Assembly (NCBI GenBank): GCA_001771135.1
Contig: MESW01000003.1
Span: forward strand, 235,786-299,785
Direction: 5' to 3'
DNA from: a candidate division CPR3 bacterium GWF2_35_18
Lineage (GTDB): Bacteria; Patescibacteriota; CPR3; GWF2-35-18
Length of the DNA: 64,000 nt
The notes under the pieces: generated by a model
Told to the model about the DNA's origin: nothing
Databases searched by the model: none
Seen by the model: only the letters and a program-made list of their open reading frames with translations
Part shown: piece after piece, positions 5,438-27,162 of the stretch
How the letters are laid out: every line of letters starts with the position of its first letter
Numbering within the stretch: position 1 is the stretch's first letter
Translations under genes and position numbers: made by a program

Positions 5438-6673
5438 ATGAAAATTGCAATTATTATCTGGAAACTAGATATTAGTGGTGGTGGACAAAGACAGGCTCTT
5501 GAGCTTGCATATAATTTACAGAAAAAAAGTCATCAGGTTGATGTTTTTTGTTGTTATCTCAACAAAGAAAAATGCTACCCAAATATTATTAACAAATTAA
5601 ACGTATACGTAATCTCTTCAGAAGATTTAGAACGAACTCTCAAAAAAAAGTTATCCTTCTCTAAAAAAATCATATCAAAAATCAAAAACTATTCCCTTGA
5701 TGCAGAAAACATTTTACTAGTAAACCTTATCCAAAAAAGAAATAAAACTGTCAAATACGATGTTTTCAATTACCATGATAGTAAAGTCTTTATGATCGCT
5801 CCTTTCTTTGAGAAAGAGAAAAACTTTTGGATGATGAATGACTTACCTTCTATTCTGGACATAAAACAACGAAATAATTTGTTTAGAAAAACCGGACACG
5901 GGATTAAAAGTATCTTTAAAAAAATCGTTTTAGTTAACAAGTTTATTAATACTGAAATAAATTTGAATTTGTACGTTCGTTACATTGGGAAAGTCATGGT
6001 TCTTGACGAAAGAAATAAAAATCTTGCCAAAAGATATTTTTTTAAAAATTCTACAGTTATTCGGAGCGGAATCGATATTGAGAAATTCAAAGTATCCAAA
6101 AAACAGTACAATCTAGATAATAAAATAAATTTATTATCTACAAGTATCTTTTTCCCTCATCGAAGATACGAAGACACTATCGAAGCTCTGAATATCCTGA
6201 TCAACAATCATAAAATAACCAATTTACACTTTAATATTGTAGGTGAATCAAAAACTGATCCTGAATATTATTCATATATACAATCTTTAGTTCAAAAATA
6301 CTCTTTAAAAAAAGATATCAGTTTTCTTGGTTCAGTTTCAGATGAAAAGCTTGCTCAACTATATAAAAACTCTGATATTTTTATTTTTCCCAACACAAAC
6401 CAAACCTGGGGATTGGCAGTCTTTGAAGCTATGTTATCAGGTTGCGTAGCGATTGTGTCAAATGGATGCGGTGCTCATGAAGTATTAACTAATAAACAAA
6501 ACGCAATTATCGTGAAAGAAAAATCATCTAATGAAATAGCTATAGCCATAAAACATTTAATAACAAACAAAAAGGAAATGGAAAAAATCGGTGAAAACGG
6601 GCAAAGTTTTGTAAAGGATAATTTATCTTGGGATAAATATACAGATGAAATGTTGAAAATTTTTAGAAGCTAA
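5438..6673 (+). CDS. Glycosyltransferase family 4
   Basis: GLAVFEAMLSGCVAIVSNGCGAHEVL motif. The start abuts the stop of the upstream gene. Confidence 0.8.
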   Translation: MKIAIIIWKLDISGGGQRQALELAYNLQKKSHQVDVFCCYLNKEKCYPNIINKLNVYVISSEDLERTLKKKLSFSKKIISKIKNYSLDAENILLVNLIQKRNKTVKYDVFNYHDSKVFMIAPFFEKEKNFWMMNDLPSILDIKQRNNLFRKTGHGIKSIFKKIVLVNKFINTEINLNLYVRYIGKVMVLDERNKNLAKRYFFKNSTVIRSGIDIEKFKVSKKQYNLDNKINLLSTSIFFPHRRYEDTIEALNILINNHKITNLHFNIVGESKTDPEYYSYIQSLVQKYSLKKDISFLGSVSDEKLAQLYKNSDIFIFPNTNQTWGLAVFEAMLSGCVAIVSNGCGAHEVLTNKQNAIIVKEKSSNEIAIAIKHLITNKKEMEKIGENGQSFVKDNLSWDKYTDEMLKIFRS

Positions 6674-8376
6674 GGTGTTCCATTCTGAGTTAGAGTTCCG
6701 ATTAAACAAAGATCTCCAGTTTCATCAATGTAAATAGAATTACCTCCTCCAGAATTCTGTATGATAAAGGCTTCCCCGCTTGGGGAATTACAGCTCGCAC
6801 TGCCACCAGCACAAGTACCAGTTTCAATACACATATTTCCAGCAGAACTAATATAACCTACGGTGCTTCCAGCGCTATTTTGAATGATAAATGAGTTATC
6901 TGGAGCGGTACAAGTTGAGGAAGCAGTGCAGGTTCCATCAAGCACGATATTTCCCAAACTACTTAAAGAAGCTCTATTTGTACCTGCACTATCTTGAATA
7001 TAGAATTTCTTTTCACTTGGCTCAGCATAATAAACTCCTGATTCCTCCATTACACACTCACCAAAGCCAAGTTTGAAGTAACCATCACCATTCCAATCAT
7101 CTCCCCAACTATTTTTTACAATCCAATAACTGGTATTATAATCACCAGTGTCATTATATCCAACAAGAACAACAGCATGATTTGCATAAATGGAACCAAC
7201 ACACCTCAAAATATCACTATCCCAATAAGCAAAACTTGGAGGATCAACAGTCCCCACATCAAACGCTATAGACAAAGGACCATATTCAATCAAATCGGCT
7301 TTCATTGTTTCAATATTTGCAGGAACACCCCAAGCAGCCGTTGTTCCCATCGAATCAATTTTCGTTAATCTACTTGACCAGTCTGAGCAGCGATCAGAAC
7401 AGGTACAATCACTACAATTCCAATTGACTTGATAAGTACACTCATCATCACAAACTCCACCTGATCCCTGTGGACATCCAGATGCGCCCCCGTCAATATA
7501 CGGCATACAAGACTCATCAGGTATTCCATAATCCTTAATATAAGTTAAAGCGTAGTCGCTCCAACCACCATTACAAGAATTATTAGCAAAACAATCTGAC
7601 ACTAAATATTGTTCAGAAAAATCCAAATCATAATTAGGATTATTGGTTACAACGTTATATGCTCCTTCTACTGTACCTACTGCTGAATATGCCCAACAAC
7701 TCCCACAATACCCTTGATTTTTTACAGACGTTACCCAGTTACTACCGTTATAATTTCGCCAATCAAAGGTGGATGGACTAGATGTCAAACCTGAAGTTGG
7801 GTTTTTTGGTGCTTCCTCTACCGGTTTATTTTGATACTCCCAAGTGGATGTATTTGTTCTTCCTTTGGTAGATTTTCCAACGATATCCATTATTTTATTC
7901 ACAGATCCCAGATGCTTTCCATCGCTTCTTGAAACACACATAGAATACTCATAAGAATACGGATCTTTCCCATCAGCCACAGAAACTAAATCATAACCTT
8001 TTTGGGTACAATATGAAAATTCCTCTCCGCATTTGCCACGATAAAATTCCCAATCACTGCACGATTTTTTATCAGGAAAAATACAAGCTCCTTGCTGACT
8101 GCCATCATTTTCCGTAATATTCTGGTATTCATATCCCATTTCTTTACAATAAACTGCTGCTGGATTCGATACACCTAGCTTCGGTTGTTCAATTTCTGTT
8201 ATATTTTCGTTTAATGCTTTTAATGATAGATTTACACTAGATGAAGGAAAATATAGTTGAAATCCTAAAAATAATATTAATATAATCAGTAAAAAATCAA
8301 AACCATACAGAATAAGTAACGGTTTATTTTTATGACTAAAAGGTGAAAATTGAGAAAGCTCTTTGAAAATAGTCAT
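6670..8376 (-). CDS. Membrane-anchored papain-family (C1A) cysteine peptidase with an N-terminal DUF333 (putative hemolysin-like) domain and three C-terminal repeats of about 40 aa
   Basis: N-terminal TM helix. A DUF333-like Cys pattern NPAAVYC...GACIF...CSDWEFYRGKC. Papain motifs NQGYCGSCWAYSAVG (catalytic Cys), NHAVVLVGY (His) and VKNSWGDDWNGDGYF (Asn/Trp). C-terminal F(I/Y)IQ(N/D)SAG... repeats occur three times. Confidence 0.75.
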   Translation of the reverse strand: MTIFKELSQFSPFSHKNKPLLILYGFDFLLIILILFLGFQLYFPSSSVNLSLKALNENITEIEQPKLGVSNPAAVYCKEMGYEYQNITENDGSQQGACIFPDKKSCSDWEFYRGKCGEEFSYCTQKGYDLVSVADGKDPYSYEYSMCVSRSDGKHLGSVNKIMDIVGKSTKGRTNTSTWEYQNKPVEEAPKNPTSGLTSSPSTFDWRNYNGSNWVTSVKNQGYCGSCWAYSAVGTVEGAYNVVTNNPNYDLDFSEQYLVSDCFANNSCNGGWSDYALTYIKDYGIPDESCMPYIDGGASGCPQGSGGVCDDECTYQVNWNCSDCTCSDRCSDWSSRLTKIDSMGTTAAWGVPANIETMKADLIEYGPLSIAFDVGTVDPPSFAYWDSDILRCVGSIYANHAVVLVGYNDTGDYNTSYWIVKNSWGDDWNGDGYFKLGFGECVMEESGVYYAEPSEKKFYIQDSAGTNRASLSSLGNIVLDGTCTASSTCTAPDNSFIIQNSAGSTVGYISSAGNMCIETGTCAGGSASCNSPSGEAFIIQNSGGGNSIYIDETGDLCLIGTLTQNGTP

Positions 8377-8400
8377 TTTAAATCCTTTGATGAAATAGAT

Positions 8401-9066
8401 TTAATTCCCTAATCTAACTACTACATTACCGGTATCTTGTAAAAACATTTTTGCTCCACCGAAATTATTTACCATCTCGAGATTATTGGTCGAATTCAGA
8501 TAACCAATATTCCCCGTAGTTGTACCTCCATCCTGACTGAAAGTAATTATTGGCTGATGAGCTTCGTTAACATTGTCCGTATCAGCTTCTATTTTGAGTT
8601 CTATTCCTCCTGTATCCGCTAAATGCAGTTTTGTCGCAGGAGCCGTCGTTCCAACACCCACATATCCGTTATACTTCCAAGTCATAATGTTTCTGGTAGA
8701 ACTGGTTAAAGTATCGTTTAAAAGTCTTAAATCTAACCGATCTAAAGAGCTTGCTCCAGTGTTAAAATTGAATGCACGACGTCCAGTAGTGTTTGCCGCT
8801 GCTTTGTAGGTCACAAATGCGTCATTATTGGCAGCTGAGGCTTCATTAAGAAAACCTGCTGCATACCCCCATCCCTTTCTTAAATGTAAAGGAAATTGAG
8901 GACTGGATGTCCCAATCCCGACATTGCCCGAGACATTAGCATACATATTGGTACCAGAATTAATCCATGAGTTTGCTTCAGCAAATACATCTTTTACTGG
9001 TTTAAAGTTACTTAATAACACACCTATAATTAACAAAAGAAAAAGTATTATTATATTTTTCCTCAT
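8401..9066 (-). CDS. Secreted protein with a signal peptide and repeated GxVGIGTxxPxxxLHL motifs (tail-fibre-like beta-rich repeat)
   Basis: Signal peptide MRKNIIILFLLLIIGVLL. Motifs GNVGIGTSSPQFPLHL and GYVGVGTTAPATKLHL. Confidence 0.5.
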   Translation of the reverse strand: MRKNIIILFLLLIIGVLLSNFKPVKDVFAEANSWINSGTNMYANVSGNVGIGTSSPQFPLHLRKGWGYAAGFLNEASAANNDAFVTYKAAANTTGRRAFNFNTGASSLDRLDLRLLNDTLTSSTRNIMTWKYNGYVGVGTTAPATKLHLADTGGIELKIEADTDNVNEAHQPIITFSQDGGTTTGNIGYLNSTNNLEMVNNFGGAKMFLQDTGNVVVRLGN

Positions 9067-12802: not shown

Positions 12803-13767
12803 TGTTTTCCTTTCCAATAATTAAAAATATCTTCTAAAGTTTTTTCAATTGGGATCTGAGGCTTCCATTTGGTATCTTTATGAAACTTTCCGTAATTACA
12901 GATTGTAACAGGATTATCAACAGCTCTCAACTTCTTTTTATCAATTTCTATCTTAATATTTTCTCCCGAAAATTGAATTAATTTATCTAAAAGCCATCTC
13001 ACCTTATAACCTTTACCTGAACCTAAATTGTAAACGTCTCCAACTTTGCATTTTTCTACTGCTAAAATATATGCTTTAACAATATCTCTAACATCAGTAA
13101 AATCTCTAGTTACATCGAGATTCCCGACAGAAATAATTTTTTCATTTTCATCCTTTGTCTTTGACTTTTCAATAATCTGCTTCGCGAATGAAGGAATCAC
13201 AAATTCCTCAGTTTGACGAGGCCCGGTATGATTGAAAGCACGAATCCTAATAATCTTTAAACCAAATGACTTAAAATAAGTATACGCAGACAAGTCTTGA
13301 GCTACTTTCGAAAATCCATACGGAGAGACTGGATTTAATGCAACTGTTTCGTCAATGTATGAGACAGATTTGGGTGTCACGCCATATTCTTGAGCAGAAC
13401 CGATGATAAGGATTTTAGGATTTAGCTTTTGTTTTCTAACTTCTTCAAAAATATTTAACTGCACTTCTAAATTATTCAAAATAGTTGGGCTTGCTGAATC
13501 TGTAGCATTACGACCAGAAGACAAAGCCGCCAAGTGATAGATGACGTCTGGTTTTGATTCTTTGATGATTTTCTGCACAAAAGATGAATCCCTTAGATTA
13601 CCTTTTAGAATGTTTATCTTTTTAGTCACAGCAGAGTTGATATCTAACCCACTGCTAAAACTCGTTCCAAAGACTTTTAAGTTTTTGTTAGTCAAATCAT
13701 TTTGAAACAGCTCTTCCGCCAAGAATGATCCCACAAAACCGGTAATTCCGGTAATTAAAATGTTCAT
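12799..13767 (-). CDS. Gmd/Rmd-family SDR paralog, possibly a reductase
   Basis: MNILITGITGFVGSFLAEEL, YGFSK and AFNHTGPRQ motifs. GSAQEYG carries Gln where Gmd has its catalytic Glu, which suggests an Rmd-like reductase. This is an inference. Confidence 0.65.
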   Translation of the reverse strand: MNILITGITGFVGSFLAEELFQNDLTNKNLKVFGTSFSSGLDINSAVTKKINILKGNLRDSSFVQKIIKESKPDVIYHLAALSSGRNATDSASPTILNNLEVQLNIFEEVRKQKLNPKILIIGSAQEYGVTPKSVSYIDETVALNPVSPYGFSKVAQDLSAYTYFKSFGLKIIRIRAFNHTGPRQTEEFVIPSFAKQIIEKSKTKDENEKIISVGNLDVTRDFTDVRDIVKAYILAVEKCKVGDVYNLGSGKGYKVRWLLDKLIQFSGENIKIEIDKKKLRAVDNPVTICNYGKFHKDTKWKPQIPIEKTLEDIFNYWKGKQ

Positions 13768-14675
13768 AATTTTAACTCACTATTTTTTTCCTTCGTTTGT
13801 TTTTTTATCTCTTCTAACCCTTGTTTCAATGATAACATCTTTAATCCCAACTCTTTTGCGGTTTTCTCTGTGTTTAGTGAAACATCAAGAGGTGCTTTGG
13901 TTCTTTTTGTCTTTTCTATATATTTTGAATAGGTAATTCCCTTGACTAGACTTTTATCTAGCCCAAATACTTCCGCAACCCCTCGAGCCAGATCTACCCA
14001 ATTGACATAACTTGTATCGGCAAAATGAAAAACTCCTTGTTTTTTATTCTTAATAATTAATCTTATTCCTTCGGCAATTTTATCAATAAAAATTGGTTTC
14101 AAAAACTGATCTTTCACAACCGTAATTTCTTCTTTGTTTTGAAGCTTCGGAATCATCCACCGCACACAATCGTTTTTGAGTGGATAGTTTGCGCGGTAAG
14201 GATAATTGATTCGAATAATGCTATATTTACAACCACCATTTTTAACAATTTCTTCCGCCTGATATTTTGTCTCAGCGTAAAAATTCTGCGGTTCCGGTTT
14301 ATCTTCTTCTTTATAATTACCTCGGTCCCCTTTAAAAACAAAACCGGTCGACATAAAAATAAAATGGCTATTATGACTTTTACTCTCAATAACTAAACTT
14401 CTTGTTCCTTCGACGTTAATTTTCGTAGCTAAGTTATGATCTTTTTCACAAAGCTCTAAATCCGCAATTGCGGCAAGATGTAAAACAATATCTGGATTTT
14501 CTTGAATAAAAACTTCAGAAACCCTATTTTTATCAGTTATGTCTAAAAAGATATTTTTGATTTCCCTATTCTGATGCGAGGTTCTATCTCCACTCACAAT
14601 TTCAAAATCTTGATGTAAAAGCTCAATTATTCTACTGCCGATTAATCCGGAACCTCCGGTAATGAGTAATTTCAT
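13764..14675 (-). CDS. NAD(P)-dependent sugar epimerase/reductase (RmlD- or Fcl/ColC-like SDR)
   Basis: MKLLITGGSGLIGSRI Rossmann motif and a YAETK (YxxxK) motif. 303 aa. Confidence 0.6.
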   Translation of the reverse strand: MKLLITGGSGLIGSRIIELLHQDFEIVSGDRTSHQNREIKNIFLDITDKNRVSEVFIQENPDIVLHLAAIADLELCEKDHNLATKINVEGTRSLVIESKSHNSHFIFMSTGFVFKGDRGNYKEEDKPEPQNFYAETKYQAEEIVKNGGCKYSIIRINYPYRANYPLKNDCVRWMIPKLQNKEEITVVKDQFLKPIFIDKIAEGIRLIIKNKKQGVFHFADTSYVNWVDLARGVAEVFGLDKSLVKGITYSKYIEKTKRTKAPLDVSLNTEKTAKELGLKMLSLKQGLEEIKKQTKEKNSELKL

Positions 14676-14786
14676 AGAATTTAAGTTTAATATTTATTGT
14701 CATCCTAAAATTCATTCAGGATCTTACAATATACAATAACCCCTAGATTCCGGATCAAGTCCGGAATGACAGAAAAAAAGATATCT

Positions 14787-15761
14787 TCATTTATTCTCAC
14801 CAAGCAACTTTTCCCACCAACGGTGGTTTTTGATATACCAGTCGATTGTTTGTTCCATCGCTTCGTTAAAATTCCACTTTGCCTGCCAACCTAATTCTGT
14901 TCTAATTTTTGAAACATCAATTGATCTTCTTTGGGTATGACCAACCGGTTCTTTTACAAAGTCGATAAGATCTTTGGAACGATCCATAATCGTTAAAATA
15001 AGTTCCGTTACTTCCAAAACTGACTTTTCACAAGAAGCACCAATATTATAAACCTGACCATTAGTATTTTTCCCATGCAAAACATAGTCAATAGCTTCTA
15101 CCTGATCTTCAACATAGATCCAATCACGCATATGTTTTCCTTCACCATGAATCGGAAGTTTTTTACCCTCTAAAGCTTGTATAATAAAAAAAGGAATTAA
15201 TTTCGTTGGATATTGATACGGTCCAAAATTATTGGCGCAACGTAAAATAGTTACAGGTGTTTCGTAAGTCAAATAATAAGAATAAGCCAACCTGTCAGAT
15301 CCGGATTTTGAAGCGGCTCCCGGTGTCATTGGATTCAGAGAATCTGTTTCCGTAAAAAGCTTTGCCGCATCCTTTTCAATCACTGAATCTCCATATACCA
15401 CATAGTCAGAAACATGAATCAGTTTTCGAATTTTATCTTTTCTGATAGCCTCAAGTAGATTAAAAGTACCGACAATATCTGTTGTGAGAAAAGATCCATC
15501 ACTATCAAATCTAAGACTCGTTGCAAGATTAATTATAACTTCAGCGTCATTCACAAGGGGTTGAATGATTTTACTATCTCTAATATCACCCTCTACAAAT
15601 TTGTATTTATGGTCACCTACAATCTCTTCCATACTATCCATATCATGCTGGTAAGACAGTTTATCCATATTCACAATTTCGTATCCTGGATATTTTTTAA
15701 AAAGATATTTGATTAAATGTTTTCCGATAAAACCGGAACCACCGATAATTAAAAGTTTCAT
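14787..15761 (-). CDS. RmlB-like (dTDP-glucose 4,6-dehydratase family) paralog that has lost the catalytic residues
   Basis: Collinear similarity to the adjacent RmlB across most of its length (NNFGPY, GKKLPIHGEGKHMRDWIYVED). However, YSASK is replaced by GAASK and TDEVFG by SDYVVYG. Confidence 0.7.
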   Translation of the reverse strand: MKLLIIGGSGFIGKHLIKYLFKKYPGYEIVNMDKLSYQHDMDSMEEIVGDHKYKFVEGDIRDSKIIQPLVNDAEVIINLATSLRFDSDGSFLTTDIVGTFNLLEAIRKDKIRKLIHVSDYVVYGDSVIEKDAAKLFTETDSLNPMTPGAASKSGSDRLAYSYYLTYETPVTILRCANNFGPYQYPTKLIPFFIIQALEGKKLPIHGEGKHMRDWIYVEDQVEAIDYVLHGKNTNGQVYNIGASCEKSVLEVTELILTIMDRSKDLIDFVKEPVGHTQRRSIDVSKIRTELGWQAKWNFNEAMEQTIDWYIKNHRWWEKLLGENK

Positions 15762-15764
15762 AGA

Positions 15765-16772
15765 TTATCTTCCATATTGTTTTTGATAATATTTTTGATA
15801 CTCACCGGATTTTATATTCATCCACCAAGTACGATTATCTTTATACCAACTGATAGTTTTTTCTAAATAAGTATCAAAATCATGTAAAGGCTTATAACCT
15901 AATTCTTTCGCAGCCTTGGAATGATCTAGGCCATATCTACGATCATGTCCGGGACGGTCTTTGACAAACTCAATTTTATCTTCCTTTTCTTCCATTATTT
16001 CTAGGATTTTTTTTACGACTTCAAGATTACTTTTTTCACTATCACCACCAATACAATAGGTCTCACCAAATTTACCTTTTTGCAAAATAAGATCAATGGC
16101 TCGACAATGATCTTCAACATATAACCAATCGCGGACATTTTTTCCATCACCGTAAACCGGAACTTTTTTCCCTTCGAGTAAATTCGTAATCGTAAGTGGG
16201 ATAAATTTTTCCGGAAAATGATAGGGACCGTAATTATTTGAGGTGTTGCTAATCGTTACCGGTAAAGAATAAGTCTTGTAATAAGCACGAACTAAACAAT
16301 CAGAACCAGCTTTACTGGCAGAATAAGGTGAATTTGGCCGAAACGGTGAATCCTCATTGAATCTATCCTGAGTATTTAATTCTAAAGATCCGAAAACCTC
16401 ATCAGTGGAAATGTGATGAAAATGTTTAATATTATGCTTCAAAGCTGATTCCAATAAGACGTTCGTTCCTAAAACATTAGTTTTCACAAAAACCGTAGGA
16501 TCCATGATAGAACGATCCACATGAGTCTCCGCCGCAAAGTGAACGATTTTGTCTACTCCAACAAGTATCCTGTCTACAAAATTAACATCCGTGATATCAC
16601 CTTTTACAAATTGATAACGCGGATTTTTTTCAAGAAATTTCAGGTTTTCCAGATTCCCACAATAAGTTAATTTATCAAGATTAAGAATCTCATCTTCGGG
16701 ATGATTTTTGAGATAGTAGTGAATAAAATTGGAACCGATAAATCCAGCTCCACCGGTAACAAGTAGCTTCAT
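15765..16772 (-). CDS. rmlB: dTDP-glucose 4,6-dehydratase
   Basis: GGAGFIGSN, HISTDEVFG and PYSASK motifs, plus NNYGPYHFPEKFIPL...GDGKNVRDWLYVEDH. Classic RfbB/RmlB. Confidence 0.9.
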   Translation of the reverse strand: MKLLVTGGAGFIGSNFIHYYLKNHPEDEILNLDKLTYCGNLENLKFLEKNPRYQFVKGDITDVNFVDRILVGVDKIVHFAAETHVDRSIMDPTVFVKTNVLGTNVLLESALKHNIKHFHHISTDEVFGSLELNTQDRFNEDSPFRPNSPYSASKAGSDCLVRAYYKTYSLPVTISNTSNNYGPYHFPEKFIPLTITNLLEGKKVPVYGDGKNVRDWLYVEDHCRAIDLILQKGKFGETYCIGGDSEKSNLEVVKKILEIMEEKEDKIEFVKDRPGHDRRYGLDHSKAAKELGYKPLHDFDTYLEKTISWYKDNRTWWMNIKSGEYQKYYQKQYGR

Positions 16773-17206
16773 TATTTTACAACTCCTTGAATTAATTCTT
16801 CCTCCGAATATTCAACCTGCTCATCTTTAAGGCTCGGATCGTAAGCCGGATCTGGATAATTCACAAGCCAGGCAACTTCGTTACCGATATTTAGTAAACC
16901 GGTTGCGATATTTTTAGGAATAAATAGGCGTTGCGGATTCTCTGCATCCAATATGTGTTCTTCCTTTTCCGCTGTACCTGGTTTATATAAAGTAATCTTC
17001 ATCTTACCTTTCAGACAAACATATCGAGCCGCTCGCACCCGATGCAGATGATAACCTTTAAACATTCCCGGATTAGTTGCCGCTAGATAAACCTCCGTTT
17101 TTGTATCACTAATATCTTTAAACAATTCTATTAAAAATCCATTATCTTGTCCGGAATGATCTTTTGTTCCTACTTTTTTTGCTGATTCGATTTTTGCTAG
17201 AGCCAT
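16772..17206 (-). CDS. Cupin-fold sugar-nucleotide isomerase/epimerase: FdtA/QdtA/WxcM-like 3,4-ketoisomerase or a short RmlC-like protein
   Basis: 144 aa. KGYHLHR resembles the WxcM/FdtA RGxHAHK motif rather than RmlC RGLHFQ. Too short for a canonical RmlC. Confidence 0.5.
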   Translation of the reverse strand: MALAKIESAKKVGTKDHSGQDNGFLIELFKDISDTKTEVYLAATNPGMFKGYHLHRVRAARYVCLKGKMKITLYKPGTAEKEEHILDAENPQRLFIPKNIATGLLNIGNEVAWLVNYPDPAYDPSLKDEQVEYSEEELIQGVVK

Positions 17207-17239
17207 AAGAAATTAATCCTTTCATCTATAACTAAAATT

Positions 17240-18016
17240 TTATTCTCGATTTCTATATAAATTCATTAAATCTTTCTTTTCATTTTCTCCCATCAACTCC
17301 TTGGCAACAAGAATATTCGCACGCATAAGTTCTTCGAAAGAAGACCCGGCATCCACCCACCAATCTTTGAGAACTTCACAGGTAAGCGTTCCTTGTTTCA
17401 GATAAAAATTGTTAAGATCGGTAACTTCCATTTCTCCCCGTGCCGAAGGATTTTGTTTCTCAATAAAATCAAAAACCTGACTATCATACATATAAATTCC
17501 AGTTTGGGCTAGGTCTGATTTTGGATATTGAGGTTTTTCCTCTATAGAAATAACTTTTCCCTTTTTATCGAGTTCAATCACGCCATAATGCTTACACTCG
17601 GTTGGCATTCTTTTGGCAACAACCTTCGCTCCTTTTTTCTGCCTGTCAAAATCTACAACCGCTTTACTTAAGTTATAACTAAAAATATTATCACCCAAAA
17701 TAACTACAATTTTTTCATTATCGGCAAAACTCTTTGATAATCCGATCGCCTGTGCAATTCCACCTTTGGGATTATCCTGAACCTCGTATGATATTTTGAC
17801 TCCAAAATTATCTATTTTTTTTAAAAGAGTGATGAATTGACCAACATGTTCCGGATTGGTGGTAATCAAAATTTCTTTGATACCGGCTTGGACTAAAGAT
17901 TCCAAGGGATAAAAAATCATCGGTTTATTATAGATCGGAAGTAAATGTTTATTCGTCACCCAAGTTAAAGGACGAAGTCGAGTGGCCATTCCTCCAGCAA
18001 GAATTACACCTTTCAT
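17240..18016 (-). CDS. Sugar-1-phosphate nucleotidyltransferase (RmlA/ManC-like)
   Basis: MKGVILAGGMATRLRPLT nucleotidyltransferase signature. 258 aa. Confidence 0.8.
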   Translation of the reverse strand: MKGVILAGGMATRLRPLTWVTNKHLLPIYNKPMIFYPLESLVQAGIKEILITTNPEHVGQFITLLKKIDNFGVKISYEVQDNPKGGIAQAIGLSKSFADNEKIVVILGDNIFSYNLSKAVVDFDRQKKGAKVVAKRMPTECKHYGVIELDKKGKVISIEEKPQYPKSDLAQTGIYMYDSQVFDFIEKQNPSARGEMEVTDLNNFYLKQGTLTCEVLKDWWVDAGSSFEELMRANILVAKELMGENEKKDLMNLYRNRE

Positions 18017-18064
18017 TATGATTCCTCCATAGATTTATTACTTTAATTTTTCTTTATTCTTCCG

Positions 18065-18997
18065 TCAAATATGTTTATCTTTCATCCAAACATGTTTATA
18101 CCAATTAACGGTTTTTTTGATTCCTTCTTCAAGCGAAACTGCAGCTTTCCATCCTAATTCTTTCTTGATCTTAGAAACATCGGCAATCGTTGTGATTTGA
18201 TCGCCAGGACGTGGACCAAGATCATCTATCTGATATTCTTTCCCAACTGCTTTTCCAATTAAATCTAATAATTTATCAATTCTGGTTCCTTTTTCTGTTC
18301 CAATATTATAGACGTGAAAACCTGTCTGCGTAAGTGGAGACACATGAGCATGAGCGATATCTTCCACAAACACAAAATCGCGAACACATTCGCCCTTCCA
18401 ATAAAGAGGGACTTTTTTCCCCTTCATAATTGATTTGATAAAATTGGGAAAAACATGTGATTCTTCATGTTTCTTCATCCACGGACCATATGCATTGAAA
18501 TAACGTAAAATTGTGGGATGAAAACCATAGCATTTATGATAAGTAAAAAGCATATCTTCAAACATTAATTTGGTCGCCCCATAAGGATTACCCGTAAACT
18601 TCGGAGCATCTTCTTTTATAGGAACAGGTACGTTTTCAGCATAAACAGCAGCCGTCGAGGAAAAAATAATTTTCTTAACTCCGGAAAGTCTCATTTCCTC
18701 AAGAAGGTTAATTCCATTTACCACATTGTTTTCAAAATATTTATCCGGGTGCTTTACCGATTCCGAGACTTCGATTAAAGCTGCCATATGAATAACCACA
18801 TCAATTCCTTTTAAGGATTTTTGGATCGCTGCTCTATCCTTAAGATCGGCCACAATTAATGTTGCTCTTTTGTCTACAGTTTCGGAGAAACCTTCGGAGA
18901 GATTGTCAAAAACCACTACCTGATGTTTCAGATCACATAAAAGTTTGACGATACTTGAACCAATAAAACCGGCACCGCCGGTAACTAAAATTTTCAT
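18065..18997 (-). CDS. NAD-dependent epimerase (UDP-glucose 4-epimerase GalE-like)
   Basis: MKILVTGGAGFIGSSIV and YGATK motifs. Confidence 0.8.
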   Translation of the reverse strand: MKILVTGGAGFIGSSIVKLLCDLKHQVVVFDNLSEGFSETVDKRATLIVADLKDRAAIQKSLKGIDVVIHMAALIEVSESVKHPDKYFENNVVNGINLLEEMRLSGVKKIIFSSTAAVYAENVPVPIKEDAPKFTGNPYGATKLMFEDMLFTYHKCYGFHPTILRYFNAYGPWMKKHEESHVFPNFIKSIMKGKKVPLYWKGECVRDFVFVEDIAHAHVSPLTQTGFHVYNIGTEKGTRIDKLLDLIGKAVGKEYQIDDLGPRPGDQITTIADVSKIKKELGWKAAVSLEEGIKKTVNWYKHVWMKDKHI

Positions 18998-20870: not shown

Positions 20871-23627
20871 TTAGGCTAATCTAACAGTAAAAGAGAACGT
20901 ACTTCCTTTACCTAAGATTGATTTGACTCCGATTTTTCCACCATGCAATTCTACTAATGCTTTTGAGATATACAATCCCAATCCAGTTCCAGATGTTTCG
21001 GAAATCATCGCATATGATTCATCGAGTCTTACAAATTTTTTAAACAGTTTTGGAATATCCTGTCTAGAAATTCCTCTACCAGTATCAGTCACATCAATCT
21101 GTACAAATTTACCTTTACGATGAGCCCCTACTTTTACCTTGCCATGCGGAGAGGTAAATTTTAAAGCATTCCCCACCAAATTGAGAAGAACTTCACGGAT
21201 TTTCTTTTCATCAATATCTACTTTTGGCAGTAAAGCTTTAGAGAAGTCATATGTAAGCTCAATCTTCTTCTCAACAGCTTTTGGCAATATTTCATCAAAG
21301 GTACTTTTTATCAGATCTTCTATCTGCTCCGGATGAAATACCATCTCAATTCTTCCACCTTCAATACGCGAGACATCAAGCATATCGGAAACCAAAGCAA
21401 TCAATCTTTCTGTGGATCTAATGATTTTATCTAAATAATCTTTTTGGTGCGGAGATAAACGAGCCTTATGTTTCCCTCTTTGTAACATCCACGCATATCC
21501 CTGAATTGCAGTCATAGGTGTTCGCAATTCATGTGAAGCGATGGAAACAAATTCATCCTTCATCCGATCTAGCTCTTTAAGATGATTATTGGCTCTTTCA
21601 AGTTGTTCATTTGTATGCGTAAGACTGTCGTAAAGACTGGCATTCTCGATCGCAATTCCTGTTTGATCTGCAAAAGCCTGCATTAACTCTTTTTCTTTAC
21701 TGGTAATCTTCTTGATATCTTTCTGTAATCCAAGGACAACTACCCCTAATTTTTTACCTTTCGCCGAAAGTGGCCAAACGACGTTGGTCTTTATGCCCGT
21801 TTGTTGTTGAATTTTCTTACTCAAACTTTCTGGTATTACTGGATTATAAAGATCGGAAAGACGTGGAAAATACATTGGTTTTGATTCAAAAACGGTCTTT
21901 ACTAAAGGATTTTCTTTATCAAATAAAGAAATTGTAAATTGGTGAATTTTTTTAGGCAAATATTCTTTAATTTTATCGAAACTAGGGGTTTGAGAAATAG
22001 CTCGAGCGCGTAGAATATGGTGTTTCTCGTCAATAAGAGCAATCATTCCCCCTACATAACCCATTTCCCATGAGATTGTATCTACGATTTTCTGACTCAT
22101 GAGATCAAGATCTAAAGTATTCATAATAATCTGATCTAAGCTACGTAATATCGCCAAAAAGTGATTTTTTCCACGTAAATCTGCAGTAGCATTAGCAACC
22201 TCTTTCTGCAGGTTTTTAGAAAAGTTCTGAACCTCAGAATAGAGATATGCGTTTTCTATTGCAATCCCAGCCTGATATGACAACGTTTCTAACGAATGAA
22301 TATCATTGACAGTAAAAGCTTCATTGCTCTTTTTCTCTCCTAGAATAATCATTCCGGTAATCTTCTCTGTTCCATGTAAGGGAATGATTACCTGTCCTGA
22401 CACCTTAGAAAGCTCTTCAATAATTTTCTCTGACTCAACTTTCTTTAGATCGGTATCAAGCTGAGCTCTCATTTCATCGATCACTAAAATCTCTTCATCA
22501 CGTAAAATTCTCTGAATAATTGGATCTTGTATAGCAAGATCAAAATTATTTAACTTATCACCCATAGATCTTAGTTCATTATTATTAGAAAAAATGAAAA
22601 AAGTGACAAAATTCACATGAAAAACGTCTTTAAATGCATCCTGTATTCTTTTAACAAGAGATTCTAGATCAATACTTTCAGCCATTGTACGAGCAAGACG
22701 ATTTAAAACCTCTTGCTCCGTATAAGTACGTTGGAAAAAAAATTTATCCGTCACGAGAATAATAATATTACTGATAAACTGACCCAAAAGTGCAACAATC
22801 AATACCAAAACAAAGATCAGAATAAATGCACGAGTATCGATTGGTACTTTTGTCAAAAGACTATAGACATATAGACCTAAGACTGAAATACCAAAAAGAA
22901 TGGAGCTATAAAGAAGCTTAATAATTAGAGCTCGAACCGCAAAACGGATATCAAGAAAACGCGTTTTCATTATTGCATAAGTTATAAATCCTACAAGCAA
23001 TAAAGTAGCAACAGGACCAAGATTTTGTATATCATAATATCCTGTAAACAATGGTATAAAAATATTAGTTAAAGATCCAAAGATTACTGCAAAAGTAATC
23101 CCAAGGATAAAAAATTTGATTTGCAACCTTTCTATACCTACGCTTTTTCTAAGCTTTTTAATTAGGAAAAAAATGTTTGCTATAGTATATCCGACGAAAT
23201 GAATTATAAACCAAATATATAGAGAACCATAAACAGTTGTTCTACTATTTCCATTAACCAATTCTTCTGCTGCTATTAATGGTGTAAAAAATGCCACTAT
23301 AAATAGTAGAAGACTTTCAGTGAATGTAAATTTAGTAATATATTTAAATTTAAAACTTTCTTCTTTTGGAAAAATCTCAACAAACTTTAATAATAAGTAA
23401 GGCATTAATGACGAAGCTGCGAAGTTAAAACGGCCCATCCATAATACGAAAACACAATTATTAATATAATAATATAAGTACAAGCTAACTAACCAAGCAA
23501 TTATACATAAAATAAACAAAGTAAATAAGATATTTTTTTTATTATGTTTATTTTTAGAAAAAACAATTACAGCTAGAAAAAAATTAGCAAAAAAAGTAAA
23601 AGCATAGAAAGGTAAAGAATTTTCCAT
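20871..23627 (-). CDS. Sensor histidine kinase: multi-TM N-terminus, GAF domains, HisKA and HATPase_c. No response regulator in the window.
   Basis: 918 aa. About 7 N-terminal TM helices. H-box SIASHELRTPMTAIQGY. ATPase G-boxes DTGRGI and GTGLGLYISKALVELHGGKIGV. Confidence 0.85.
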   Translation of the reverse strand: MENSLPFYAFTFFANFFLAVIVFSKNKHNKKNILFTLFILCIIAWLVSLYLYYYINNCVFVLWMGRFNFAASSLMPYLLLKFVEIFPKEESFKFKYITKFTFTESLLLFIVAFFTPLIAAEELVNGNSRTTVYGSLYIWFIIHFVGYTIANIFFLIKKLRKSVGIERLQIKFFILGITFAVIFGSLTNIFIPLFTGYYDIQNLGPVATLLLVGFITYAIMKTRFLDIRFAVRALIIKLLYSSILFGISVLGLYVYSLLTKVPIDTRAFILIFVLVLIVALLGQFISNIIILVTDKFFFQRTYTEQEVLNRLARTMAESIDLESLVKRIQDAFKDVFHVNFVTFFIFSNNNELRSMGDKLNNFDLAIQDPIIQRILRDEEILVIDEMRAQLDTDLKKVESEKIIEELSKVSGQVIIPLHGTEKITGMIILGEKKSNEAFTVNDIHSLETLSYQAGIAIENAYLYSEVQNFSKNLQKEVANATADLRGKNHFLAILRSLDQIIMNTLDLDLMSQKIVDTISWEMGYVGGMIALIDEKHHILRARAISQTPSFDKIKEYLPKKIHQFTISLFDKENPLVKTVFESKPMYFPRLSDLYNPVIPESLSKKIQQQTGIKTNVVWPLSAKGKKLGVVVLGLQKDIKKITSKEKELMQAFADQTGIAIENASLYDSLTHTNEQLERANNHLKELDRMKDEFVSIASHELRTPMTAIQGYAWMLQRGKHKARLSPHQKDYLDKIIRSTERLIALVSDMLDVSRIEGGRIEMVFHPEQIEDLIKSTFDEILPKAVEKKIELTYDFSKALLPKVDIDEKKIREVLLNLVGNALKFTSPHGKVKVGAHRKGKFVQIDVTDTGRGISRQDIPKLFKKFVRLDESYAMISETSGTGLGLYISKALVELHGGKIGVKSILGKGSTFSFTVRLA

Positions 23628-23653: not shown

Positions 23654-24541
23654 TCATTTAACTAAATTATTACACAAATATTCCTTTGAGACTAGACGCT
23701 CCCACTCGTGAGTATTAATTTTAGACAAAGTTTCAATTTCATTATTTGGTATTGATTTTTTTGCTAAAGTAAAATATGGAGCAGCCACTAGAGCACACCC
23801 AATTTCATTTTGGTGAACAAAGACATCTTTTACGACAACAAAGATCTCTTTATAATCAACTTTTTGATTTTCACCTATCATTAAAATACTTGTCGCTATT
23901 TTCCTAGATATTGGCTCATACAATTCAACGTTATATTTCATTGGATGTTCACCATCAGGTATAAAACCCATATCTTCCATTAAAAGATTTGCATTTTGTG
24001 TTCTATCATTTGCGATACCAATAGCAATAGCAGAATATATACGAATTGGTCCTTTTAATTTTATATTTTTACCTGCACATGGTACATGAGATCCAGGCAA
24101 AAGTGGGAATCTTTTTTTCTCAACAGTTCCAAATAATCGTTTAGTAGCATTAACAAGTGGTTCTCCAGAGTATACACGAACAATTCTTCCGTTTCTTTTC
24201 ACAGATGAAACTCCATAAGCAGACTCCTGTCTGATATTGCTATGCCTAGCAATATCATATCCCCATATCAAACCATTTAATCCACAAAATGAAGATACTG
24301 TGATCATGTTTATTTGTCCAATATTTGTATCATATACCTCAGCTTTATCAAATGCATTTATTTTATCTAAATTATCCGATCCACTACTAGTCAATTCTAT
24401 TTTCGACCTACCAACACCTAAAACTATACCTAAAATATAATTATTCCCGGAGGCCCCTGGACTACCAAAGCCATCACAATAATAATCATATGAGCTTATT
24501 GATCCCTTTAATCTGTCTGTTACTTTTATTTTTTTTGTCAT
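23654..24541 (-). CDS. Pyruvoyl-dependent amino-acid (histidine-type) decarboxylase proenzyme-like (HdcA/PF02329-like)
   Basis: 295 aa. The motif order matches my recollection of the Lactobacillus 30a HdcA proenzyme: IGQINMITVSS-FCGLNGLIWGYDI, with the Ser-Ser self-cleavage site at about residues 83-84. Then SHVPCAGKN, IYSAIAIGIANDRT and VAAPYFTLAKKSIPNNEIE. Confidence 0.55.
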   Translation of the reverse strand: MTKKIKVTDRLKGSISSYDYYCDGFGSPGASGNNYILGIVLGVGRSKIELTSSGSDNLDKINAFDKAEVYDTNIGQINMITVSSFCGLNGLIWGYDIARHSNIRQESAYGVSSVKRNGRIVRVYSGEPLVNATKRLFGTVEKKRFPLLPGSHVPCAGKNIKLKGPIRIYSAIAIGIANDRTQNANLLMEDMGFIPDGEHPMKYNVELYEPISRKIATSILMIGENQKVDYKEIFVVVKDVFVHQNEIGCALVAAPYFTLAKKSIPNNEIETLSKINTHEWERLVSKEYLCNNLVK

Positions 24542-24550
24542 AGATTTTCC

Positions 24551-25495
24551 TTATTTTGCTAATCTTCTAATTAAATTGGGTGAAACGTTTTGTTGGATTT
24601 TCAATAAAGAAACAATATCTGGATGATATAAAAAAACTAAGCCATCCGCAGTTTGATGTATTGCTTCAAAACCATACATAGATGCTAAACGAAAAACTTG
24701 AGAACGCGTTGATGTCCAAAACACCGCTTCTTTTGCTCCATTGTATACACCATGTTCAAAGGCAACTCTTGCAAGATTGAAGAAAGAACCTGGAACATCT
24801 CTAAAGTTAGTATCTGGATCATCAGCTCTTAGTGTTCCCATCTCATCTTCGTATAATATATTTTCTAAATTTGCTCCTCTTTCTTGAAGGGCTTGCTCTA
24901 CTTGAAGTAATTCTTGTCGACCTGAATCATTTCCTTTAAATCTTGCATTAAATATCCTATCAGAAATTCCATTCCATGAACCCACACAACATTCTACAAA
25001 ACCGCCTACAAGAGTATCTTCATTACCATACATAATTCCTAAACATGGTTTTATATCTTCTGATGGTCTTAACTCCGAAATAAATCTATCTTTTAATTCA
25101 TCTCTATTGTAATAAGGCTTTAATTCTCCATTACAACTTTGGCATATTCCACTACTACCTTGATTTAAAGGTATTATCTTCCCGCAATTAATACATTTCC
25201 AACCTTCACCCCAAATTACTTCTCCCGTATTTTTATCAATTTCATCATCTCCAAATACTTTAACATATGTATCTACCAATGAATCTATTAAAGTTTCATC
25301 AATTTTTTCCATTGAATTATAGGAATAATATCTTTCTGGAAGCTTTATTTTAGCTCTTTCTGGAGAAGATGATAATGGTAGAAATTTAGGAATTCCTTGA
25401 AGTAGTAGAGATTTGAAGCCACCAGAATCTGACCTCATAACAGGTATTGCAGCTTTTATAAATTCAGTTTCATCAAAAGGTTTTTCATCATTCAT
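24551..25495 (-). CDS. GNAT-fold-like (acyl)transferase with an inserted C4 zinc ribbon. Paralog of the next gene.
   Basis: VKVFGDDE... N-terminal motif. Zinc-ribbon insertion CINCGK...CQSCNG. C-terminal GNAT-like motif ...AVFWTSTRSQVFRLASMYGFE (N..A..lY...GF pattern). Confidence 0.45.
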   Translation of the reverse strand: MNDEKPFDETEFIKAAIPVMRSDSGGFKSLLLQGIPKFLPLSSSPERAKIKLPERYYSYNSMEKIDETLIDSLVDTYVKVFGDDEIDKNTGEVIWGEGWKCINCGKIIPLNQGSSGICQSCNGELKPYYNRDELKDRFISELRPSEDIKPCLGIMYGNEDTLVGGFVECCVGSWNGISDRIFNARFKGNDSGRQELLQVEQALQERGANLENILYEDEMGTLRADDPDTNFRDVPGSFFNLARVAFEHGVYNGAKEAVFWTSTRSQVFRLASMYGFEAIHQTADGLVFLYHPDIVSLLKIQQNVSPNLIRRLAK

Positions 25496-25585
25496 AATTC
25501 ATAACAGTATAATACTATATTTATGAAATTACTGGAAGGAATAAGACTATTATGAGGCATTTAGCCTTATTCCTTCCATTTTTAG

Positions 25586-26290
25586 TCATAACCGTGACGT
25601 TAGCTTCATTAAACGTGCGATTTTACGTTGTTTTAGATTCTGTGTGATTTTCAGTAACGGAGTAAAATCGCGATTTACAAGGAATACAATACCTTCACTT
25701 TCACATAAAGGTTCGAATCCCATGTAAACTGACAAGTTTGCAATATTGCTTTTCCATGAAGTCCAGAAAATAAGAGATTTTACTCCTTGATTGAATGCTA
25801 ATTCCAATCCTGGCCTCAACAGAAATTGAATTGGAGTTAAACCTCCTCTTGATGTCGAAGTTATAGCAAATTCATCATAGAATAATATTGAATCGCTTTT
25901 GGTATGGGGTAAATTTGCCAATAACTGCCTTACGCCAGTGAAATTGGATTTTGTTCGAAGTATTCTCTGTGATATTTGCGATTTGGGAATTAACGCTCCC
26001 CAACTAAAACCAACCACACCTAAAGGTGAAGACATGGTTGTTAAAAATCCGGATTCAATTTCGTCGTATAAACGGCATAAAATTGTTTCAGGATCATGAA
26101 TCTCATTCCAGGGAGGTTCTCCGAAAACCTGAATGTAAGCAGAAACTACCTGCTGTGCAACAGTCTCTGGACATGAATCAAAATATGAATGAAATTTTGG
26201 GGGAATTCGAACTGGGGATCCCTCAAGTGGGTAAATCTTATATGGCAATGTACCCATTCTTAGAATAGATCTAATCAACAAGTATTTCAT
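25586..26290 (-). CDS. GNAT-fold-like (acyl)transferase. Paralog of 24551-25495.
   Basis: IQVFGEPPWNE, then SRGGLTPIQFLL, then ...SLIFWTSWKSNIANLSVYMGFE. The C-terminal tails of the two paralogs are alike. GGAGAG RBS. Confidence 0.45.
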   Translation of the reverse strand: MKYLLIRSILRMGTLPYKIYPLEGSPVRIPPKFHSYFDSCPETVAQQVVSAYIQVFGEPPWNEIHDPETILCRLYDEIESGFLTTMSSPLGVVGFSWGALIPKSQISQRILRTKSNFTGVRQLLANLPHTKSDSILFYDEFAITSTSRGGLTPIQFLLRPGLELAFNQGVKSLIFWTSWKSNIANLSVYMGFEPLCESEGIVFLVNRDFTPLLKITQNLKQRKIARLMKLTSRL

Positions 26291-26406: not shown

Positions 26407-27162
26407 TTAAAAGTTTTGTGGAATATATTCCACAATTCTAAAACGAGGATATCGCACCAGATTGATTGCTGACATATAATGACACACCTCTCCTACATCT
26501 TTAATAAAATAAATCGAATTATCACTTAAAATATTAGTATTATTGTATTTCTCTTGCGCTTTTATCCAATATTGATGAAATTCTATATAATTTATAGTTA
26601 AATAGTTGATTAAGTCAGTCGTTACTTTGGTGTTCTTAGATAGTTCATAATTTGTATATCTCATAAAAAAAACTAAGTCGTTTAAAAAAAGTGTTTCCCA
26701 TCGTTCCTTTTTCATTGCTTTTTTAAATTGAGGTTGTAGCATAATTTCTAACATGTTCCGGCCTTTAAACATATTTGCGAATATTGAATTTACTCTAAAT
26801 AAATTCAATATTTTTTTGTTCCAATTATGAATGAATAAATAATCATCTTCTAAAAACGATGGATACTTAGATAATTTTAAATATGAATCTGTCTCATTTA
26901 TTGCTAATTTTACTTCTTCAGAATTAACCCTATCTTGCTGAATCCCTATTAGATACATTGCTTGTTTATCTGTTAAATCTAATACTTTCGTAATTTTTAG
27001 TAACGTTTCTTTCGTAGGGTTTATTTGACCGGATTCAACCTTAGAAATATGTCCATTAGAAGCACCAATTTCAAGCTCTAACTGTTGTTGAGTTAATCCT
27101 TTTGAAATTCGAAATTTTTGAACTTTTTCTCCAATCTGTTTTACATTTTCTTCTTTAAACAT
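26407..27162 (-). CDS. XRE-family HTH transcriptional regulator with an approximately 180-aa C-terminal domain (Rgg/RNPP-like architecture is possible)
   Basis: N-terminal HTH ISKGLTQQQLELEIGASNGHISKVESGQINP. 251 aa. Confidence 0.8.
   Translation of the reverse strand: MFKEENVKQIGEKVQKFRISKGLTQQQLELEIGASNGHISKVESGQINPTKETLLKITKVLDLTDKQAMYLIGIQQDRVNSEEVKLAINETDSYLKLSKYPSFLEDDYLFIHNWNKKILNLFRVNSIFANMFKGRNMLEIMLQPQFKKAMKKERWETLFLNDLVFFMRYTNYELSKNTKVTTDLINYLTINYIEFHQYWIKAQEKYNNTNILSDNSIYFIKDVGEVCHYMSAINLVRYPRFRIVEYIPQNF

Follow-up and report, generated by a model that had tools for sequence, protein, structure and literature searches.

A Patescibacteria variant of the HdcA-family pyruvoyl-dependent decarboxylase encoded beside GNAT-fold proteins and a 7TM sensor kinase

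Introduction

To our knowledge, pyruvoyl histidine decarboxylases have been studied almost only as histamine producers, in connection with food spoilage, gut bacteria and acid resistance. Here we describe a member of the HdcA family encoded in a 64,000-nucleotide stretch of the genome of candidate division CPR3 bacterium GWF2_35_18 (GenBank assembly GCA_001771135.1, contig MESW01000003.1, positions 235,786 to 299,785 of the forward strand), referred to below as the window. Its gene is preceded by genes for two GNAT-fold proteins, N234 and N314, which belong to what we call the N-family, and is followed by a gene for a seven-transmembrane (7TM) sensor histidine kinase. The family assignment of the decarboxylase is not new and is already in the public annotation; what is new is the genomic context, namely a Patescibacteria-wide HdcA variant accompanied by a GNAT-fold family and a 7TM sensor kinase, and no description of such an N-family, decarboxylase and 7TM kinase operon was found in the literature searched.

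The described enzyme used here for comparison is HdcA of Lactobacillus saerimneri 30a (1PYA/1HQ6), in which autocleavage takes place at the Ser81-Ser82 pair, Ile59 serves as the lid, the ligand is bound by Tyr62 and Asp63, and Asp53 pairs with Asp198 in a pH bridge (PMC8465708), while Glu197 and Glu66 were probed in a mutagenesis paper cited in PMC2720952. Clusters of pyruvoyl-type hdcA with the antiporter gene hdcP are known from six phyla, Patescibacteria not being among them, and three-gene clusters composed of hdcA, an aaxB-like (PvlArgDC) gene and an APC antiporter gene have been published for Bacteroidota (PMC8465708). A functional pairing of a self-cleaving pyruvoyl proenzyme with a protein of GNAT fold has also been described, in PanD and PanZ (PanM): PanD, an aspartate decarboxylase, needs PanZ to form its pyruvoyl group (PMC3496974; also PMC3473359, PMC4410942), and GNAT enzymes that acetylate histamine are known (PMC5799202).

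Results

Identity of the decarboxylase

The open reading frame (ORF) of the decarboxylase extends from ATG to stop exactly over the interval given in Table 1 and encodes four motifs: IGQINMITVSSFCGLNGLIWGYDI (residues 74-97), which contains Ser83-Ser84, followed by VPCAGK (153-158), SAIAIGIAND (170-179) and VAAPYFTLAKKSIP (252-265). An earlier note on this DNA had proposed an HdcA-type pyruvoyl proenzyme with a Ser-Ser self-cleavage site from such collinear pi-chain motifs, all of which were indeed recovered in the order quoted, and their collinear presence is, as judged from the protein sequence, far beyond chance. Profile searches assign the protein to PF02329 (HDC, "Histidine carboxylase PI chain"; 189.3 bits against a Pfam cutoff of 25, E = 1.1e-55) and not to an unrelated family, the alignment of residues 11-281 with profile positions 9-286 of 294 being a full-length match. 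Among PDB sequences, phmmer matched only the Lactobacillus 30a enzyme (alpha chain E = 9.4e-16, beta chain E = 8.3e-07), with Ser83 aligned to Ser81, the C-terminal residue of the beta chain, and Phe85 aligned to Phe83, the second residue of the alpha chain; the proposed Ser83-Ser84 site thereby falls on Ser81-Ser82 of the solved structures.

The NCBIfam equivalog TIGR00541 gave 168.7 bits, below its cutoff of 346.65. A partial match to PF01862 (PvlArgDC; residues 146-256, 31.8 bits) reflects superfamily-level similarity only, and the protein is not a full-length pyruvoyl-dependent arginine decarboxylase (TIGR00286, 24.7 bits against a cutoff of 106.95). By its sequence, the window ORF is a genuine HdcA-family pyruvoyl-type decarboxylase proenzyme, sharing with the Lactobacillus 30a enzyme the PF02329 family, collinearity over nearly the full length, the Ser-Ser-Phe cleavage site and equivalents of Ile59, Asp63, Glu66, Asn76, Lys155, Glu197 and Asp198.

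Catalytic residues, substrate pocket and pH switch

Conservation was assessed in two alignments. In the first, the window decarboxylase was joined by 120 close homologs, three homologs from proteobacterial plasmids and the genuine HdcAs of L. reuteri and S. capitis; the second was built from 88 locus-derived sequences sorted by genomic context, 55 of them linked to an N-family gene (N-linked). Lactobacillus 30a numbering is used for both. Ser81, Ser82, Phe83, Asp63, Glu66, Asn76, Glu197 and Asp198 are invariant in 55/55 N-linked proteins, position 155 is Lys or Arg throughout this group and position 59 is Ile in 48/55; the key residues are likewise conserved across the 120 close homologs, all of which (120/120) carry Ser-Ser-Phe. 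The checks that the earlier note had suggested, on the conservation of the Ser-Ser site, the pyruvoyl-forming serine and the substrate-binding residues, have therefore come out in its favour. In the window protein Ile59, Asp63, Glu66, Lys155 and Glu197 correspond to I61, D65, E68, K158 and E189.

Because the cleavage, catalytic and ligand residues are conserved, the decarboxylase is very likely processed and active, and the invariance of the ligand-binding Asp63 and Glu66 points to L-histidine, or a near analogue of it, as the most probable substrate. A pseudo-enzyme reading was rejected, all catalytic residues being invariant across more than 120 homologs.

Other residues differ in a manner that tracks genomic context in the 88-sequence alignment. 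At position 53, the pH switch, antiporter-linked and Firmicute enzymes have Asp whereas 51/55 N-linked proteins have Ser, as does the window decarboxylase (Ser55), in which the Asp198 equivalent is kept. Position 62 is Tyr in antiporter-linked and Firmicute enzymes and Phe (35) or Tyr (20) in the 55 N-linked proteins; position 195 is Phe in the former and Leu in 39/55 of the latter; position 196 is Ile or Val in the former and Met in 55/55 of the latter. Thr84 to Cys and Ala80 to Val are further changes in the window clade.

Comparison with classical hdcA loci

Genuine hdcA loci carry an antiporter gene, with or without hdcB and hisS. In contrast with the Firmicute hdcP/hdcC-hdcA-hdcB-hisS clusters, the window decarboxylase has GNAT-fold genes and a 7TM kinase gene as neighbours: tblastn with L. 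reuteri HdcC and two APC antiporters found no antiporter in the 64-kb window or in any of the N-linked loci (~55), L. reuteri HisS found no histidyl-tRNA synthetase (HisRS) gene in the same set, and L. reuteri HdcB had no match in the window or in any locus outside its own. The antiporter queries do match in loci L073/L074 and in genuine Firmicute hdcA loci. The protein itself is 27-34% identical to Firmicute HdcAs, scores half of the TIGR00541 cutoff, and differs from the Lactobacillus 30a and Firmicute enzymes by Asp53 to Ser, Tyr62 to Phe, Phe195 to Leu and Ile196 to Met.

The L073/L074 cluster (5926-8924) is of the antiporter type published for Bacteroidota and consists of an HdcA-family gene (~295 aa), a PvlArgDC-like gene and an APC antiporter gene. 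Its HdcA-family protein shares Val80 and Cys84 with the window decarboxylase but keeps Asp53, Tyr62, Phe195 and Ile196, and the PvlArgDC-like gene and AA_permease_2 antiporter gene lie directly downstream, with no N-family gene and no kinase gene.

Conservation of the gene module

The window order on the minus strand is HTH_3 regulator, N234, N314, decarboxylase and a 7TM-GAF-GAF-HisKA-HATPase kinase. The stop codon of N314 lies 9 nt ahead of the decarboxylase start, with an AGGA ribosome-binding site in the gap, the kinase gene starts 26 nt past the decarboxylase stop codon, and a scan of the window found no terminator-like site between these three genes.

For comparison, 80 metagenome loci (73 non-redundant) were fetched by an alignment-based scan, ORFs were called and an iterative N-family hidden Markov model was applied; loci were considered informative with at least 900 nt of upstream sequence (53 loci) or at least 400 nt of downstream sequence (63 loci). 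An N-family gene lies directly upstream of the decarboxylase gene on the same strand in 40/53 loci, elsewhere in the locus in 2/53, and is absent from 11/53. Downstream, a kinase gene starts within 60 nt in 25/63 loci and within 3.5 kb in 18 more, and the kinase is often followed by REC-only proteins, which are absent from the window. Three related GTDB genomes (Shapirobacteria, Saccharibacteria and a higher-GC "Syntrophaceae" metagenome-assembled genome) all have an N-family gene immediately upstream, the stop and start codons of the pair overlapping in the "Syntrophaceae" genome, and two of the three have a homologous kinase gene immediately downstream. The full trio was found again in locus L095 when sampling from the N-family side. 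The order of N-family GNAT gene or genes, decarboxylase gene and HisKA_7TM sensor kinase gene is a conserved operon order in Patescibacteria.

Fold and extent of the N-family

N234 and N314 are paralogs (27% identity, E = 2e-16), neither of which has a Pfam or NCBIfam family above cutoff; zf-C2HC5 reaches 21 bits on N314, below cutoff, reflecting only a Cys4 insert (CINCG...CQSCNG, about residues 100-122). The AlphaFold2 model of N234 (pLDDT 90.3, pTM 0.88) gave 521 Foldseek matches in the PDB at E <= 1e-3, and all 50 of those listed belong to the GNAT superfamily; the model of N314 (mean pLDDT 78.9) has a GNAT-like secondary-structure core with a zinc-ribbon insert. As modelled, the N-family has the GNAT fold. 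Its consensus (Y..VF..PW.E.W ... V.GF.WG ... E..I....R.G..P ... WT...S....L....GF) maps onto alpha1, beta3, beta4/motif A and beta5/motif B, the F-R-x-G-x-x-P of the beta4-alpha3 loop being a variant of motif A (Q/R-x-x-G-x-G/A), and PF00583 (Acetyltransf_1) is touched by 3/50 members (best E = 0.022). The N-family is only 10-17% identical in sequence to arylalkylamine, polyamine and agmatine N-acetyltransferases (insect Dat/AANAT; mycobacterial Eis, which acetylates histamine), and is further set apart from them by its atypical motif A, by additional helices at both termini and, in part of the family, by the Cys4 insert.

The N-family is small: an exhaustive profile search of 1.84 billion representatives gave 349 N-family representatives at E <= 1e-3 and 134 at E <= 1e-10, and homolog searches returned 4 proteins with N234 and 7 with a 50-sequence N-family alignment, numbers that do not allow a deep alignment. 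A conserved basic, hydrophobic N-terminal helix is also present in N234 and its closest relatives, MKYLLIRSILRMGTLPYKIY, in residues 1-20 (modelled helix 2-13), which may be an in-plane membrane anchor that places the enzyme near the 7TM sensor.

Genomic contexts of N-family genes

Fusions join N-family domains to S-adenosylmethionine (SAM) methyltransferases (P0200, P0213, P0223) and, in P0235, to a fatty-acid hydroxylase; in loci L097 and L098, N-family genes have free-standing hydroxylase and methyltransferase genes as neighbours. N-family genes occur without any HdcA-family gene in L090-L092, and close HdcA-family relatives (50-51% identity) occur without an N-family gene in L010 and L012. 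In L096 (355-4465) a pyridoxal phosphate (PLP)-dependent ornithine/diaminopimelate/arginine decarboxylase gene, a gene whose 208-aa product is of unknown family, a tandem pair of N-family paralogs and an HdcA-family gene follow one another in this order; this operon could be a mobile two-decarboxylase amine pathway. A phage-type integrase gene is found 1 kb from the L096 operon.

In P0175 (L089, 135-1586), residues 6-185 form an N-family domain and residues 211-460 an HdcA-family domain whose VSSFCG site is intact; the gene for this fusion is followed by a HisKA_7TM kinase gene. This supports a functional coupling of the N-family with HdcA and would fit either a tailoring or a maturation role.

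Link to the sensor kinase

HisKA_7TM (PF16927) was matched over nearly the full length in 10/10 sensors tested beside N-family or HdcA-family genes, five of the ten scoring below the Pfam cutoff of 28.6 bits, and GAF was detected in 6/10. A methyltransferase::N fusion stands ahead of a HisKA_7TM-GAF-GAF-HD protein in L090, where no decarboxylase is close by, and a comparable fusion stands ahead of a 7TM protein in L091; in L092/L093 a hydroxylase::N fusion comes after an OmpR-type regulator and a kinase, the kinase being seen in L092. Sensors being found beside N-family genes with or without a decarboxylase, the 7TM sensor domain is therefore a constant partner of the N-family, and it may detect the product of the pathway.

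Public record and size of the decarboxylase family

By exact look-up, all four genes of the locus are public. The decarboxylase is deposited as "Histidine decarboxylase" (KKP70338.1/OGB63546.1), the two genes upstream of it as "hypothetical protein", one of them being an "N-acetyltransferase domain-containing protein" in UniRef, and the downstream kinase as "Multi-sensor hybrid histidine kinase" (KKP70337.1). The product of the upstream neighbour is 100% identical to a protein from candidate division CPR3 bacterium GWF2_35_18. The family had been taken in the earlier note to be rare and mainly known from Firmicutes, and this did not hold: the decarboxylase has at least 500 homologous proteins at E <= 1e-5, the best 120 of which are of Patescibacteria type (45-56% identity, ~280-300 aa; named organisms include Shapirobacteria, Dojkabacteria and other Patescibacteria), in addition to the clusters published from six phyla. 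The sequence of the decarboxylase itself is absent from the homolog search output, its 90% cluster being represented by a 108-aa fragment.

Discussion

The model that we propose is that of a biosynthetic HdcA-family decarboxylase whose amine product is N-acylated by the N-family, in a pathway coupled to the 7TM sensor, and taken as a whole we assign it a probability of about 0.5. There is direct support for family membership, for conservation at the catalytic positions, for a GNAT fold in the neighbouring proteins and for the linkage and order of the genes; from there we infer self-cleavage, substrate, acyl transfer and product sensing. The pi-chain would cleave itself between Ser83 and Ser84 by serinolysis into a beta chain (residues 1-83) and an alpha chain (84-295), Ser84 giving rise to the N-terminal pyruvoyl cofactor of the latter. 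This cofactor would form a Schiff base with the amino-acid substrate, and Glu189 (Glu197 of Lactobacillus 30a) would protonate the intermediate once CO2 is lost, the substrate decarboxylated probably being histidine and the reaction proceeding without an acid switch. The enzyme would serve to supply the amine and would not drive a histidine/histamine antiport cycle that confers acid resistance; N314 and/or N234 would most likely N-acylate or N-acetylate the amine product, and the pathway would be co-transcribed with the 7TM kinase, functional coupling being probable and product sensing possible.

The deposited name and the conservation of all Lactobacillus 30a ligand-binding and catalytic residues would also agree with a classical catabolic HdcA, for which histidine is imported and histamine exported through an unlinked transporter, consuming protons or generating proton-motive force, and for which the GNAT and kinase neighbours are incidental or purely regulatory; a precedent for amino-acid catabolism benefiting Saccharibacteria is the arginine deiminase system (PMC8764695). 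We consider this improbable given that no APC/HdcP antiporter, HdcB or HisRS was found in the window or in the ~55 N-linked loci by queries that do match L073/L074 and Firmicute loci, that the acid-activation residue Asp53 is replaced by Ser, that the equivalog score is half of the cutoff, that the census of hdcA with hdcP lists six phyla without Patescibacteria (PMC8465708), and that a tight and widely conserved order of N-family, decarboxylase and kinase genes is hard to call incidental. A classical role in acid resistance or proton-motive force is argued against because both the acid-activation switch and the exchanger appear to have been lost. The sub-cutoff TIGR00541 score, the clade-specific pocket changes (at Tyr62, Phe195, Ile196, Thr84 and Ala80) and the arginine- or ornithine-related neighbours of relatives (PvlArgDC-like in L073, arginine deiminase (ADI)-like in L071 and the PLP-dependent ornithine/arginine decarboxylase in L096) could instead indicate that the enzyme acts not on histidine but on a different amino acid, for example another basic one, an aromatic one or a modified one, in which case the public name would be an over-annotation. 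Such a substrate is in our opinion rather unlikely, as none of the clades examined, proven HdcAs included, varies at Glu66 or at Asp63, which is the imidazole ligand, the changes at 62, 195 and 196 are conservative and hydrophobic, and Val80 and Cys84 are common to the antiporter-linked L073 clade and not specific to the N-linked group.

The role of the N-family requires a separate choice, since these proteins could be maturation factors of the proenzyme, which would bind to the pi-chain and set off its cleavage at Ser83-Ser84, perhaps according to the level of CoA or acetyl-CoA. PanZ is a GNAT-fold precedent for this, and a substitution by the N-family for HdcB, the maturation protein of Firmicute HdcA, is plausible given that HdcB was not found here; the genes look translationally coupled (the 9-nt gap in the window, an overlap in L003), there is one natural N::HdcA fusion, and the atypical motif A with sub-threshold Pfam GNAT scores would fit a GNAT protein with catalysis lost. 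However, N domains are also joined to methyltransferases and a hydroxylase and stand beside a PLP decarboxylase in L096, N-family genes occur without HdcA-family genes and HdcA relatives without N-family genes, all of which form a pattern of small-molecule tailoring. A specific relationship to PanZ with obligate co-occurrence with the proenzyme, which would define a PanZ/PanM-type factor, was not found for the N-family. The tailoring role is thus favoured, and maturation, although the PanZ precedent makes it a rival to be taken seriously, seems improbable.

A number of points weigh against the proposed biosynthetic pathway. Tyr62 to Phe (35/55), Phe195 to Leu (39/55) and Ile196 to Met (55/55) set the N-linked proteins apart from proven HdcAs, which makes histidine a probable and not a certain substrate, and the atypical motif A together with matches to Acetyltransf_1 in 3/50 members makes acyl-CoA binding by the N-family putative. 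The N::HdcA fusion comes from a single 2.8-kb contig and could be an assembly or frameshift artefact, the fusions to methyltransferases and a hydroxylase involve remote members of the N-family (E = 1e-14 to 1e-21) that may belong to other pathways, the kinase linkage may reflect only operon regulation or co-regulation, and a transporter could be encoded beyond the 64 kb examined.

A further and doubtful extension of the model is that the trio constitutes a chemical signalling system of episymbiotic Patescibacteria, in which an amine (histamine or a related compound), N-acylated by the N-family, would be sensed by the HisKA_7TM receptor. The N-family shares the GNAT fold with acyl-homoserine lactone (AHL) and N-acyl-amide synthases, and the sensors carry kinase or HD output. 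Structure and context are all that the N-family has in common with GNAT-fold signal synthases such as the AHL synthases LasI/TofI/BjaI and the N-acyl amino acid synthase FeeM; it has no sequence-level relationship to them and shows no sign of SAM or acyl carrier protein (acyl-ACP) use, and their cognate sensors differ from the sensor here, a kinase with the HisKA_7TM domain, for which no ligand has been reported (PMC6944256). If true, this would be a new autoinducer-like synthase/receptor pair and would provide the first ligand for the orphan HisKA_7TM sensor domain.

In any case, a large Patescibacteria clade has kept the catalytic machinery of HdcA without antiporter, HdcB and acid switch, and is tied to a GNAT-fold family and a 7TM sensor kinase. 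If the biosynthetic model is true, it would give a widely mis-transferred annotation a biosynthetic role that can be tested, assign a function to a new acyltransferase family, and provide a candidate small-molecule signal and receptor in bacteria of the candidate phyla radiation, whose host-interaction chemistry is essentially unknown. The components of the module, with the exception of the kinase, are small soluble proteins.

Other features of the window and of related loci

Table 1. Positions of the decarboxylase module and of neighbouring elements, counted from the first nucleotide of the window
Feature	Position	Strand	Basis
HdcA-family pyruvoyl-dependent decarboxylase proenzyme, 295 aa	23654..24541	minus	ORF, PF02329, TIGR00541, PDB 1hq6/1pya alignment, KKP70338.1
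Codons for Ser83-Ser84, predicted serinolysis site	24290..24295	minus	Read from sequence; aligns with Lactobacillus 30a Ser81-Ser82
N314, N-family GNAT-fold protein with Cys4 zinc-ribbon insert	24551..25495	minus	Paralogy to N234, AlphaFold2 model
N234, N-family GNAT-fold protein, core form without zinc ribbon	25586..26290	minus	
Sensor histidine kinase, 918 aa: HisKA_7TM, two GAF, HisKA, HATPase_c	20871..23627	minus	Pfam
Hairpin, 17-bp stem, in the N234-N314 spacer	25533..25578	minus	RNA folding
Xre-type HTH_3 protein, 251 aa, upstream, same strand	26407..27162	minus	Pfam HTH_3 E = 1.7e-11
Nucleotide-sugar biosynthesis cluster	13764..18997	minus	
CHAP (amidase/peptidase) domain protein, 792 aa	30024..32402	plus	
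Segment of 1.77 kb with no ORF above ~93 aa	56136..57907		

The hairpin in the 95-nt spacer between N234 and N314 has a folding energy of -30.6 kcal/mol (z = -7.35; 0/200 shuffled sequences fold as well), and a second, smaller hairpin lies just ahead of the N314 start codon. The larger one may be a terminator, an attenuator or an RNA-stabilising element, and may separate or attenuate N234 transcription from that of N314, the decarboxylase and the kinase. The HTH_3 protein, a possible local regulator, has a homolog in only one other locus (L040) and so is not a conserved part of the module. The best sigma-70-like site of the region (11/12 matches) is upstream of its gene; the scan as a whole was no better than in shuffled sequence (44 sites against 41.6 expected) and says nothing on operon structure.

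A mobile-element or phage origin of the module was rejected, as nothing in the window context supports it. The nucleotide-sugar biosynthesis cluster a few genes downstream, comprising an NTP_transferase gene, several GDP-mannose-dehydratase/epimerase-type genes, an FdtA/WxcM-like gene and an RmlD-like reductase gene, appears unrelated to the decarboxylase. The CHAP-domain protein is encoded in a locally GC-richer segment (0.43) and may hydrolyse cell walls, which could matter for an episymbiotic way of life. The segment without longer ORFs has a GC content of 0.42 against ~0.33 around it. Rfam models, taken up to E <= 0.1, and scans for tRNAs and direct repeats found nothing in this segment, in which the only repeats are weak inverted ones; it could be a decayed gene or an undescribed RNA.

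Beside the antiporter-type cluster of L073/L074, HdcA-family genes without an N-family neighbour recur in two further contexts, which suggests several distinct roles for the family. One is represented by L012 (565-4432), in which genes for a thiamine pyrophosphate (TPP)-dependent enzyme and an aldehyde dehydrogenase lie upstream, and by L010, with a TPP enzyme gene upstream; the other by L041 (2136-6366), L045 and L071, in which an unannotated gene lies upstream that is ADI-like by Pfam in L071 only, with a P-type ATPase gene downstream in L041.

HdcA-family genes are also carried by plasmids of Methylocystis (L004), Salipiger (L005) and Rhizobium (L006), their products being 31-41% identical to the window decarboxylase and nearer to it than Firmicute HdcAs are. 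No antiporter gene is close to them, and tblastn with N-family proteins found no N-family gene in these plasmid loci. In the Rhizobium copy, Thr-Ser replaces Ser-Ser at the cleavage site and Arg replaces Glu66.

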